The position numbers and the translations under genes were made by a program. Shown piece after piece: positions 54,259-56,924 of a stretch of DNA of 64,000 bases. This stretch comes from Candidatus Methylomirabilota bacterium (lineage in GTDB: Bacteria > Methylomirabilota > Methylomirabilia > Rokubacteriales > CSP1-6): NCBI GenBank assembly GCA_035764725.1, contig DASTYT010000006.1, positions 4,833 through 68,832 on the forward strand, given 5' to 3'. Positions within the stretch are counted from its first letter, which is position 1; each line of letters opens with the position of its first letter. The notes below the pieces were generated by a model. It ran no database searches, was not told the DNA's origin, and saw only the letters and a list, made by a program, of their open reading frames with translations.

Positions 54259-54290
54259 CGTGACCAAAGTCCCCGTGACCAAGGTCCAAT
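54259..54290. promoter_or_regulatory. Tandem copies of CCGTGACCAARGTCC ending in GACCAAGGTCCAAT; the last ATG of the motif is the start codon chosen for the downstream receiver gene
   Basis: Seen directly: cccgtgaccaaagtccccgtgaccaaggtccaATG. The same 14-mer recurs at 56911-56924. Confidence 0.5.
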
Positions 54291-54726
54291 GTCGCTCGCG
54301 CCACGCTCCTGTAGCATCAGATCAGTGTCTGGCGTCGGCTTCCCATCCAGCCTCTGCGCGGTACCGCTCGTCTCGATCGTCGATGACGACCCTTCCGTGC
54401 GCCGCGCGCTCCAGCGCCTGATCGAGGCCGCGGGCTACGCCGTGGAGACCTTCGCGTCGGGGGAGGACTTCCTCGATGCCACGCCCTGGGGCCGCAGCGC
54501 GTGCCTGATCATCGACATCCACATGGTGGGCATGACGGGGCTCGAGCTGCAGGAGCGGCTGATGGCGCGGGGCAGCGCGGCGCCCGTCATCTTCATCACC
54601 GCGATCGACGACGCTCCGACACGCGAGCGGGTCGGGCTGTCCGGCGCCGCCGCATACCTGCCGAAGCCGTTCGACCGGAAGACGCTCCTCGGAGCCATCC
54701 AGGGAGCAATCGCGTCGCACGACTGA
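54289..54726 (+). CDS. Stand-alone response-regulator receiver domain protein (CheY-like); start uncertain (alternative GTG about 39 nt downstream)
   Basis: VSIVDDDPSVRRALQRLIEAAGY...LIIDIHMVGMTGLELQ...AYLPKPF is a receiver domain with no output domain. Confidence 0.6.
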   Translation: MSLAPRSCSIRSVSGVGFPSSLCAVPLVSIVDDDPSVRRALQRLIEAAGYAVETFASGEDFLDATPWGRSACLIIDIHMVGMTGLELQERLMARGSAAPVIFITAIDDAPTRERVGLSGAAAYLPKPFDRKTLLGAIQGAIASHD

Positions 54727-54755
54727 AGAAGCCGTGCGGAGGGGGCGAGCGGGGA

Positions 54756-54782
54756 GGGGAACGGCCAGTAGGGCCGTTCCCC
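54756..54782. terminator. Perfect 11-bp GC-rich hairpin (GGGGAACGGCC-agtag-GGCCGTTCCCC) between the convergent receiver gene and groEL; candidate bidirectional intrinsic terminator without a strong U-tract
   Basis: Inverted repeat seen directly, about 30 nt after the receiver stop and 20 nt after the groEL stop. Confidence 0.5.
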
Positions 54783-54801
54783 TGAGGTGGTCGGCTCCAG
54801 C

Positions 54802-56424
54802 CTAGAAGTCGCCGCCCCCGTACGGCATGGACGGCGCGGCCGCCTTTTCCTCGCGCGCGTCGGTGATCAGAGCCTCGGTGGTCAGGAGCAGGGACGCAAT
54901 CGACGCGGCATTCTGCAGGGCCACGCGCTCGACCTTGGTGGGATCGATGATCCCGGCCTTGATCATGTCGACATACTCGTTGGTCTCGGCGTTGAAGCCG
55001 AAGGCGGTCTCCTTGGAGCCCTTGACCTTCTCGACGACGACCGACCCTTCGAGGCCGGCGTTCTGGACGATCTGCCGGATTGGCTCCTCGAGGGCGCGCA
55101 GGACGATGCGGGCCCCGGTGGCTTCGTCGCCCGAGAGCTTGAGGCCGTCGAGACCCTTCGCGGCCCGGAGCAGCGCGACGCCTCCGCCGGGCACGATACC
55201 TTCCTCGACCGCCGCCCGCGTCGCGTTGAGGGCGTCCTCGACGCGCGCCTTCCGCTCCTTCATCTCGGTTTCCGTGGCCGCCCCTACCTTGACGATGGCG
55301 ACGCCGCCCGCCAGCTTCGCGAGTCGCTCCTGGAGCTTCTCGCGGTCGTAGTCCGAGGTGGTCTCCTCGATCTGCGCCCGGATCTGCTTGATGCGACCCT
55401 CGATCGCCCCGGTCTTGCCGCCTCCGTCGATCACCGTCGCCTTGTCCTTGTCGACGACCACCTTCTTGGCCCGCCCCAGGTCATCGAGCTTGAGGTTCTC
55501 GAGCTTGATCCCGAGGTCCTCGGTGATCGCTTTTCCGCCCGTCACGGTGGCGAGGTCTTCGAGCATGGCCTTCCGGCGGTCGCCGAAGCCGGGCGCCTTG
55601 ACCGCGCAGCAGGCGAGCGTGCCGCGCAGCTTGTTCACCACCAGGGTGGCCAGGGCCTCGCCCTCGACGTCCTCGGCGATGATGAGGAAGGGCTTGCCCG
55701 CGTGCGCCACCTGCTCGAGCAGGGGCAGCATCTCCTTCATGACGCTGAGCTTTTTCTCGTGGATGAGGATGAGGCAGTCTTCGAGAACCGCCTCCATGCG
55801 GTCCGGATCGGTCACGAAGTAGGGGGAGAGGTAGCCCCGATCGAACTGCATCCCCTCGACGACCTCGAGGGTGGTGTCCATCGCCTTGGCCTCCTCCACC
55901 GTGATGACGCCATCCTTGCCGACCTTTTCCATGGCCTCGGCGATGAGGTTTCCGATGGTCTTGTCATTGTTGGAGGCGATGGTGGCGACCTGCGCGATCT
56001 CCTTTTTGTCCTTCGTGGACTTCGACATCTTCTTCAGCTCCTCCACCACGCTCTCCACCGCCTGATCGATCCCGCGCTGGAGGGCCATGGGGTTGGCCCC
56101 CGCGGTGACGTTCCTCAGGCCCGCGCGGAAGATCGCCTGGGCGAGCACGGTCGCGGTGGTGGTTCCGTCACCCGCGATGTCGGAGGTCTTGGAGGCGACC
56201 TCCTTGATCATCTGGGCACCCATGTTCTCGGCGTTGTCCCCGAGCTCGATCTCCTTGGCGACGGTGACGCCGTCCTTGGTGATCGTGGGGCTGCCGAACT
56301 TCTTGTCGATCACGACGTTGCGGCCCTTGGGGCCCAGCGTGACGCTCACCGTCCGGGCGATGGTGTTGACGCCGCGCAGGAGCGCGGCGCGAGCTTCCTC
56401 ATTGAAGACGAGCTGCTTGGGCAT
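54802..56424 (-). CDS. groEL: Chaperonin GroEL (60 kDa)
   Basis: [38 protein letters not shown]...[16 protein letters not shown] are hallmark GroEL sequences. 540 aa. Confidence 0.95.
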
Positions 56425-56480
56425 TTCGATGTTCCTCCCGCATTCGGTAGGGGTCCGTCATCAGCGGCCGGGCCGCCGCC

Positions 56481-56765
56481 TCACGAAGAAAGGACGCCGA
56501 GGAGGTCCTCCTCCTTCATGACGAGGTACTCTTCGCCGTCCAGGCTGATCTCGCTGCCGGAATACCTCGCGAAGAGCACGCGATCACCCGCCTTGACGTC
56601 GAGCGGGGTCTTCTTGCCGTCCTCGGCGACCTTGCCCTTGCCGACGGCGACGATCTTGCCCTCTTGCGGCTTCTCCTTGGCGCTGTCGGGGATGATGATG
56701 CCGCGACGGACCGTCTCCTCCTCGACGCGCTTGAGCAGGACTCGGTCGTGGAGTGGGCGGAGCAT
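56481..56765 (-). CDS. groES: Co-chaperonin GroES (10 kDa); an alternative ATG 21 nt upstream at 56786 has AGGGAGG in front of it
   Basis: [44 protein letters not shown]...[14 protein letters not shown] matches GroES end to end. Confidence 0.9.
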
Positions 56766-56908
56766 GGTCTTCCTTGTCGGAGTCATGGCGTGAGTGCCTC
56801 CCTCTTCCAGGTGTGAGTGAGCCAGGCGTCGGAGCATGCCAGCGGTCAGACATGCCGATGAGCGAGATGCACTGATCACGTTAGCAGCCGCGGTGGTCCG
56901 GCGGCAAC

Positions 56909-56924
56909 TGGACCAAGGTCCAAT
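56909..56924. promoter_or_regulatory. Palindrome TGGACC-AA-GGTCCA plus AT (shared 14-mer GACCAAGGTCCAAT) in the groES / 56999-gene divergent intergenic region
   Basis: Seen directly. A second occurrence of the motif lies at 54276-54290. Confidence 0.5.

Follow-up and report, generated by a model that had tools for sequence, protein, structure and literature searches.

A conserved palindromic site beside a FixJ-family two-component system of a Methylomirabilota bacterium, a probable operator of its response regulator

Results

The locus and its two copies of the palindrome

The stretch of DNA analysed here (the window) comprises 64,000 nucleotides of a Candidatus Methylomirabilota bacterium (contig DASTYT010000006.1, assembly GCA_035764725.1). 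On its plus strand a sensor kinase gene is followed by a response regulator gene, a palindromic site (site 1) and the gene of a stand-alone receiver; groEL and groES then lie on the minus strand. A second copy of the palindrome (site 2) is found in the 232-bp region between groES and a divergent gene encoding a protein of 131 amino acids. The shared sequence, GACCAAGGTCCAAT, occurs as two exact copies, both on the plus strand, at 54277-54290 and 56911-56924. The first-pass annotation, made from the letters alone, had drawn attention to this pair, placing the second copy correctly and the start of the first off by one. The genes and sites are listed below; L011, L014 and L018 are related contigs.

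52276..53613, plus strand: sensor histidine kinase, GAF-HisKA-HATPase_c (Pfam); first gene of the two-component operon
53610..54242, plus strand: response regulator with a receiver and a GerE/LuxR-type helix-turn-helix (HTH) domain (Pfam); proposed binder of the motif
54258..54275, plus strand: degenerate upstream tandem copy of the putative operator, CCGTGACCAAAGTCCCCG, 15 bp from the proximal copy
54273..54290, plus strand: putative operator site 1, CCGTGACCAAGGTCCAAT, in the gap that separates the regulator stop codon from the stand-alone receiver gene; kept in L011, L018 and L014, with diverged flanks
54312..54317, plus strand: -10-like hexamer TAGCAT, 30.5 bp from the site 1 dyad; invariant in the window, L011, L018 and L014
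54325..54726, plus strand: stand-alone receiver gene (Pfam Response_reg); probable start at a conserved GTG 7-8 nt after the -10-like hexamer
54802..56766, minus strand: groEL-groES operon (groEL 54802-56424, groES 56481-56766; Pfam Cpn10, with Cpn60_TCP1 in orthologous loci); possible secondary target
56907..56924, plus strand: putative operator site 2, ACTGGACCAAGGTCCAAT, in the divergent groES/small-protein intergenic region
56947..56952, plus strand: -10-like hexamer TAACAT, 31.5 bp from the site 2 dyad, at positions 38-43 of the metagenome profile
56999..57394, plus strand: gene of the 131-amino-acid protein, with one predicted N-terminal membrane helix and a ribosome-binding site, GGAGGAGG, before its ATG; predicted target of site 2

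Site 1 is made of two 15-bp units in tandem, CCCGTGACCAAAGTC (54257-54271) and CCCGTGACCAAGGTC (54272-54286), which are 93% identical with a period of 15 bp, so that the tandem copy described in the first-pass annotation is borne out. Site 2 contains TGGACC-AA-GGTCCA (56909-56922), a perfect 6-2-6 palindrome, as had been read there. CTCGC follows both sites on their 3' side (54295-54299 and 56928-56932), and an in-frame ATG (54289-54291) overlaps the motif at site 1.

A shared 14-mer is weak evidence when taken alone, because 477 distinct 14-mers recur in this 71% GC window, compared with 135-240 in Markov-1 simulations. When the window was shuffled, the GACCAAGGTCCAAT pattern with up to two mismatches gave a mean of 0.09 matches, and three or more matches were seen in 0 of 100 shuffles. 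The significance of the motif derives from its conservation in orthologues and its recurrence elsewhere. Two weak matches in the window were set aside, one at 29769 inside an open reading frame (ORF) and one at 57909 within the RNase P RNA gene.

The palindrome and its distance to a -10-like hexamer are conserved

For footprinting, ten contigs carrying an identical small protein were excluded, being too similar to inform. The whole gene order is kept in L011-13, where the small protein is 94% identical, and in L014, where it is 80% identical. At site 2, the window, L011 and L014 share a 21-nt block, CAACTGGACCAAGGTCCAATA, without any change, while some 25 nt to either side have diverged; the -10-like position 31.5 bp from the dyad reads TAACAT, TAAGCT and TAGACT, respectively. 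At site 1, the palindrome and TAGCAT are invariant in the window, L011, L018 and L014, and the sequence in between has diverged. The number of 15-bp units at this site varies, with one in L014 (1940-1957), two in the window (54257-54290) and three in L011 (3225-3280) and L018. The motif is a real, conserved palindromic DNA site.

The comparison also bears on the start of the receiver gene. In L014, site 1 is a perfect palindrome ending in GGTCCACTT (...CCACTT) and the ATG overlapping the motif is absent, indicating that the overlap is incidental. An in-frame GTG 7-8 nt 3' of TAGCAT is kept in the window, L011 and L014, which suggests that the leader of the receiver mRNA is very short or absent. 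The first-pass annotation was thus correct in seeing an in-frame ATG across the motif, and the start codon it proposed there probably gives way to the conserved GTG. Similarly, the CTCGC stretch that it noted after both sites is present in the window and is conserved neither in the orthologues nor in the metagenome profile described below.

TAGCAT lies 7-8 nt before the likely receiver start, GTG 54325 (region 54312-54327), and a -10-like hexamer TAGAGT lies 7-8 nt before the likely kinase start, ATG 52276 (region 52262-52278). The spacing of hexamer and start codon at these two genes hints at leaderless or very short-leader mRNAs in the source organism.

Genome loci were fetched with the kinase as query, yielding two close relatives only; most of the others are distant kinases without the motif. 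One distant metagenome-assembled genome (L022) encodes a PAS-HisKA kinase with a divergent regulator 50% identical to that of the window, and holds two motif copies beside this two-component system. The first, ATAGGACCAAGGTCCTAT, stands just after the kinase gene, ahead of genes for a lipoprotein-like solute-binding protein and an AI-2E transporter. The second, ATAGGACCAAGGTCTTAT, precedes the gene of a stand-alone receiver 47% identical to that of the window. Two loci with homologues of the small protein (L015 and L016) contain neither the motif nor the two-component system.

A metagenome census extends the palindrome and gives it a direction

We scanned JGI metagenome contigs for GGACCAAGGTCCNAT and recovered at least 120 loci (median length 3 kb), from which 125 unique instances were profiled. 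The upstream flank, which the search left unconstrained, showed A in 62%, T in 80% and T in 52% of instances at positions -2, -1 and 0, mirroring the NAT that the search required. As the free flank mirrors the constrained arm, the element can be written tATTGGACC-AA-GGTCCAATa. The full element is thus an 8-2-8 palindrome, ATTGGACC-AA-GGTCCAAT, longer than the 6-2-6 palindrome read at site 2, with the core GGACC-AA-GGTCC. Viral contigs with the same 14 specified bases served as a negative control; they carry T at -1 in 17 of 69 cases, the ATT flank is absent, and no regulator homologue was found on them.

Downstream of the palindrome, profile positions 16, 17 and 19 favour A, G and C, which together with T15 form a weak -35-like T-A-G-n-C, and positions 38-43 read TAnnnT. 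TAnnnT starting at positions 37-39 was found in 44 of 126 cases in the AA orientation, in 7 of 126 when mirrored and in 1 of 126 at a control offset, indicating that the AA centre marks the direction of the promoter. The hexamer begins 30.5 bp from the dyad at site 1 and 31.5 bp from it at site 2, which predicts a centre near -43 for both sites if transcription starts about 7 nt after the hexamer.

Divergent gene pairs in two loci (L187 and L254) use two sites that face outwards, and in two others (L234 and L273) sites are arranged in tandem with a spacing of 22 bp. The GC content of motif-bearing contigs spans about 50-72%, which implies that several lineages carry the motif. The concern in the first-pass annotation that the 14-mer might be common and randomly placed can be answered: it is common in soil metagenomes, yet its distance to the -10-like hexamers downstream is fixed and it lies next to one regulator family. 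In the papers searched, string searches for the motif returned unrelated primers only, never the motif as a regulatory element.

Two further observations came from the census. In a phage family of about 56 kb (L105, L115, L117, L154 and some 15 other IMG/VR contigs), GGACCAAGGTCCTATG is present in two copies, separated by 58 nt, that belong to a conserved repeated stretch (actagcc..tcgGGACC...); since the ATT flank is absent, this repeat, to which many of the viral matches belong, looks coding rather than an operator. In L274 (6936-7085), a perfect operator sequence, ATTGGACCAAGGTCCAAT, and TAGCGT precede a 22-codon hydrophobic ORF, MSDWMVFATTVVIAFLIRTLVF, with a strong ribosome-binding site. 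This ORF is divergent from the gene of a 989-amino-acid kinase of the same family as the window kinase.

The motif accompanies one subfamily of regulators

The regulator of the window has FixJ as its best NCBIfam model (201.5 bits, below the cut-off of 255). Compared with solved structures, it is closest to StyR (1yio, 1.4e-48), followed by FixJ (5xso, 3.7e-42), with DevR (3c3w, 2e-12) a distant match. Pfam detects a Response_reg receiver and no PAS/LOV domain in it. The closest NCBIfam model for the kinase core is FixL, at 188 bits against a curated cut-off of 850. The recognition helix of the regulator reads E174-K-T-V-K-V-H-R181. Among the annotated genes of the window, no other DNA-binding gene flanks the sites.

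In the 120 census loci, which were picked by the motif alone, a homologue of the kinase, the regulator or the receiver was present in 26, among the matches listed. At least 13 independent contigs encode a regulator 48-66% identical to that of the window, and the midpoint of its gene is mostly no more than about 400 bp from the motif. Seven loci (L166, L167, L197, L204, L266, L273 and L274) share an arrangement in which the kinase and regulator genes are followed by the motif, in the same orientation, and then by a receiver gene or a different one. Of the Pfam families encoded downstream of the motif, Response_reg is the most frequent (6 of 119, among the matches listed); the remaining downstream genes are of many kinds, among them those for sulfatases, amylases, a glycogen phosphorylase, MlaC/MlaE and several DUFs. 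Of 14 motif-linked regulators, 13 have the helix EKT[VI]K[VI]HR, whereas 21 of the 26 FixJ-like regulators whose loci lack the motif have a different one (PRTVE, EVTVK, ERTVK and others).

The stand-alone receiver keeps the acceptor Asp, the Thr and the Lys of functional receivers. The 131-amino-acid protein belongs to no family in Pfam or NCBIfam, and its homologues carry Methylomirabilota/Rokubacteria labels and come from soil.

The groES side of site 2

A candidate promoter for groES was identified on the minus strand:

56902..56907, minus strand: candidate groES -35, TTGCCG, abutting the operator; TTGCCG in the window and L011, TTGTGG in L014
56878..56883, minus strand: candidate groES -10, TAACGT, after an 18-nt spacer; in the same alignment columns, TAGGGT in L011 and TAGCGT in L014

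Relative to the palindrome, these elements occupy mirror-image positions 15-20 and 39-44. Site 2 could therefore serve both the plus-strand promoter and the candidate groES promoter. Co-regulation of groESL through site 2 is nevertheless rated as unlikely, because the mirrored orientation is the rare one in the census (7 against 44) and the groES -35 is better than that of the plus side. A sigma-70 consensus scan of 54100-57100 gave no match. Look-ups of the exact GroES and GroEL proteins gave no matches.

The known heat-shock operators have the consensus sequences TTAGCACTC-N9-GAGTGCTAA (CIRCE, bound by HrcA) and CTTGAGT-N7-ACTCAAG (HAIR, bound by HspR). Both are absent from 56767-56998 on either strand. 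Readings of the motif and the groES upstream region as sigma-54 (-24/-12), sigma-32, CIRCE, HAIR or CtsR elements were rejected as not fitting the sequence. Downstream of the candidate groES promoter, a GCATGCC/ACATGCC repeat with a period of 16 bp (56834-56856) is kept in L011 and L014; it might represent another operator, located in the groES leader, and we know of no heat-shock element that it fits.

These data can be set against a different view of the palindrome, namely that it is a bidirectional element mainly controlling groESL as a stress or heat-shock operator, with the small gene as a passenger. In its support, the candidate TTGCCG-N18-TAACGT is kept in three lineages, mirror-symmetric to the plus-strand promoter, and in L016 dnaK-grpE-dnaJ-hspR and groESL are close to the gene of a distant small-protein homologue. 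However, the central AA faces away from groES, divergent pairs elsewhere use two outward-facing sites rather than a shared one, and no chaperonin gene stands beside the motif among the 120 metagenome loci listed. In addition, no chaperone gene adjoins site 1 on the promoter side, and neither CIRCE nor HAIR is found. We regard a primary role in groESL control as unlikely, although it is the best of the alternatives. The first-pass annotation had rightly placed the sites next to regulatory or stress genes; the direction of site 2, like that of site 1, is towards the plus-strand genes, encoding the receiver and the 131-amino-acid protein, and not primarily towards groES.

The L016 locus (1-12420 of a 5.6-Mb contig) holds its homologue of the 131-amino-acid protein, 58% identical, between dnaK-grpE-dnaJ-MerR_2 (hspR-like) and groES-groEL. 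This suggests that the protein belongs to a stress neighbourhood also in the absence of the motif and of the two-component system. Further along the window, an RNase P RNA of class A (288.6 bits; 57734-58144, minus strand) lies downstream of the small-protein gene, followed by a tRNA gene (60818-60890, minus strand) and rpoD (60908-62773, minus strand). On the other side, an ORF of 2218 amino acids (45444-52100, minus strand) is divergent from the kinase gene.

Discussion

Taken together, the data make it likely that the FixJ/NarL-family response regulator encoded at 53610-54242 uses the motif as its operator and that the motif serves as a class II activator site. The first-pass annotation had proposed an operator of a dimeric factor, plausibly the adjacent regulator, and this proposal is supported by the footprints, the palindromic extension, the adjacency of the regulator and the match of helix and consensus to those of EL222, described below. 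In the cascade we propose, the cytoplasmic GAF-domain kinase (52276-53613) would sense a signal and phosphorylate the regulator, which would then dimerise. The two LuxR-type HTH domains of the dimer would bind the inverted half-sites GGACC and GGTCC of ATTGGACC-AA-GGTCCAAT. Its dyad would lie about 43 bp upstream of the predicted start, abutting the weak -35-like hexamer and 31 bp from the TAnnnT -10, and from there the dimer would recruit RNA polymerase as a class II activator. Of the possible modes of control, we infer class II activation as the most likely, given the -43 geometry and the parallels with EL222 and DosR. The regulator would thereby turn on the stand-alone receiver gene and the gene of the 131-amino-acid membrane protein. 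By analogy, the receiver would probably act as a phosphate sink or inhibitor, providing negative feedback. Site 2 touches the -35 of the candidate divergent groES promoter and may modulate it.

Several observations weigh against this interpretation. No full operator is present upstream of the kinase operon in the window, where only a half-site-like CCAAGGTCAA of non-standard geometry is found (52141-52150), so that the window gives no evidence of the operon being autoregulated. The two copies at site 1 are 15 bp apart, compared with 21-22 bp for cooperative sites, and hence neighbouring copies overlap and fall out of helical phase. In L022 (8801-8826), a single base separates the perfect palindrome ATAGGACCAAGGTCCTAT from a perfect TATAAT downstream, a repressor-like geometry. 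Four Myxococcales loci and L019 encode regulators with the same helix and show no strong motif in the sequence examined; L019 has a weak site upstream of its kinase gene. The test for intergenic placement discriminates only moderately and is blunt in high-GC DNA: frames of at least 300 codons span 33% of the motifs, against 63% of random positions. Lastly, the -10 and -35 assignments are predictions in a genome of 71% GC.

The same regulator might act mainly as a repressor or roadblock, with site 1, for example, controlling read-through from the kinase-regulator operon into the receiver gene. The position of site 1 directly after the regulator stop codon on the same strand, the L022 site that abuts TATAAT, and the ability of EL222 to repress from sites between -35 and -10 or downstream of -10 (PMC5001607) would all agree with such a role. 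Yet 35% of instances have TAnnnT at a constant 31 bp from the dyad, compared with less than 1% at control offsets, and it is accompanied by the weak -35-like T-A-G-n-C; the fixed distance combined with only weak -35-like bases is the signature of an activator-dependent promoter. The predicted geometry is, moreover, the same as that of DosR at -42.5. Repression as the main activity thus seems improbable.

We consider it equally doubtful that the motif, although a real operator, belongs to another LuxR-type or dimeric factor encoded elsewhere, such as an EL222-like one-component protein or a paralogue, the adjacent regulator being merely a neighbour. The EKTVK-HR helix does occur in EL222, which is not a response regulator, the downstream genes are as diverse as those of a global regulator, and 94 of the 120 motif loci lack a two-component gene among the matches listed, though most of these contigs are only 1-3 kb long. 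On the other hand, genes for regulators with the same helix are found only a few hundred bp away from the motif in two distant lineages and in no fewer than 13 independent contigs, and the absence of any other DNA-binding gene beside the window sites points the same way.

A chance repeat, a dispersed REP- or MITE-like repeat, an RNA hairpin or a terminator, which the many recurring 14-mers of the window and the position of site 1 after a stop codon might bring to mind, is very improbable: similarity stops at the 18-20 bp palindrome with unrelated flanks, the motif is kept in orthologues and recurs with the regulator family, site 1 folds no better than shuffled sequence (z = +0.92) and has no U tract, the 2-nt centre is unable to form a hairpin loop, an Rfam scan of the window gave only the RNase P RNA and the tRNA, and the only terminator-like match in 54100-57100 (57039-57054) lies inside the small gene.

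On the sequences compared, the palindrome appears as a new operator of an uncharacterised, widespread subfamily of FixJ-family regulators, whereas its predicted mode of control is ordinary and of an already known kind; no new kind of mechanism is revealed. More tentatively, there may be an undescribed regulon, widespread in uncultivated soil bacteria of several lineages and run by a FixJ-family subfamily with EL222/DosR-type recognition. Such a regulon would be marked by an unusually invariant operator of 18-20 bp, a promoter direction set by AA and a receiver feedback module hard-wired after the operon. We hold this wider picture to be possible, somewhat short of an even chance.

The site and its surroundings would provide a precise operator, a promoter geometry and the first target genes for an uncharacterised two-component system of Methylomirabilota (Rokubacteria) and of other uncultivable soil bacteria, with a regulon predictable from sequence alone. 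They also suggest a recurring design in which a regulator directly induces a stand-alone receiver encoded right after its own operon. As a natural, high-information version of an EL222/DosR-type site, the operator could aid the design of orthogonal promoters. If the wider regulon is real, it would offer a natural family of operators and target promoters for the optogenetic tool EL222.

Comparison with known systems

NarL sites have the 7-2-7 arrangement TACYYMT, with heptamer-like arms, a 2-bp spacer and a GerE-type dimer, and NarL gives class II activation at -42.5. The lux box of LuxR is 20 bp long (PMC5001607). The window system is similar to both in its two arms with a 2-bp spacer, its proposed GerE-type dimer and a predicted activator site near -42 in place of a good -35, and differs from them in the sequence of the sites, the signals and the partners.

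The StyR/TodT boxes read ATAAAC-N4-GTTTAT; StyR is the best solved relative of the window regulator, and its proposed contacts are Lys175, Val176 and His179 (PMC5874301). Both sites are palindromes with arms of about 6-7 bp around a short centre. The half-sites differ, the first position of the window helix is Lys rather than Val (EKT and not EVT), and the equivalent of His179 is Ala.

Rhizobial FixJ is one of the nearest relatives of the regulator. The sites from which it activates extend across the -35 region, between -69 and -31, and its known sites at the fixK and nifA promoters are TAAGTAATTTCCCTTA, GTAGTTTCCC and GTAMGTAG (PMC4999443). These are unrelated in sequence to the window motif, and the FixJ helix reads PRT[VI]EV[HY]R. 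We rejected membership of the rhizobial FixLJ system, since the regulator and the kinase score below the FixJ and FixL cut-offs (201.5 of 255 and 188 of 850 bits) and the sensor is GAF instead of haem-PAS.

The consensus obtained by SELEX for EL222, the LOV-HTH protein of Erythrobacter litoralis, is RGNCYWWRGNCY (Rivera-Cancel et al. 2012, as quoted in PMC10521638). The core GGACC-AA-GGTCC corresponds to RGNCY WW RGNCY and fits this consensus, in the quoted form, at 12 of 12 positions (PMC10521638). The recognition helices are also alike, SEKTVKMHRGLVMEKL in EL222 and VEKTVKVHRAQVMVKM in the window regulator (SEKTVKMHR and VEKTVKVHR), and EL222 is the second-best match when the HTH domain alone is compared. 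EL222 binds as a dimer and activates transcription in Escherichia coli from a site that stands in for the lux box across the -35 of the luxI promoter, whereas a site between -35 and -10 or downstream of -10 represses (PMC5001607). EL222 differs in being a light-gated one-component LOV protein, while the window HTH is joined to a phospho-receiver and has a kinase as partner, and the degenerate EL222 consensus contrasts with the far more defined 18-20 bp palindrome of the window. Membership of the EL222/LOV-HTH family was rejected, as the regulator carries a Response_reg receiver and lacks a PAS/LOV domain.

DosS and DosT, the partner kinases of DosR, have two GAF domains and a HisKA_3-type core. 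The window kinase has HisKA (PF00512) and one GAF domain. The Dev box of DosR/DevR of Mycobacterium tuberculosis, TTSGGGACTWWAGTCCCSAA, is a 20-bp palindrome with GGGACT half-sites (PMC3177182, PMC5999986); its boxes lie at -42.5 (proximal) and -63.5, giving a tandem spacing of 21 bp (PMC3177182). The DosR helix is EKTVK(N), in which K179, K182 and N183 are core DNA-binding residues, K179 and K182 contacting bases (PMC5999986), and DosR recruits polymerase by contacts with sigma region 4 and alpha (PMC13486717). The window system shares with DosR a 20-bp palindrome with a WW centre, a GGAC core equally far from the dyad, the EKTVK helix with its two base-contacting lysines and a GAF-containing partner kinase, and the tandem sites of L234 and L273, 22 bp apart, have a similar spacing. 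The half-site is TGGACC here rather than GGGACT and the regulator is only distantly related to DevR (2e-12); on these grounds and on the kinase domains we rejected membership of the DosR family, while the mechanistic resemblance stands. The window system would thus resemble DosR, EL222 and LuxR at class II promoters, and lies outside the DosR, EL222 and rhizobial FixJ families.

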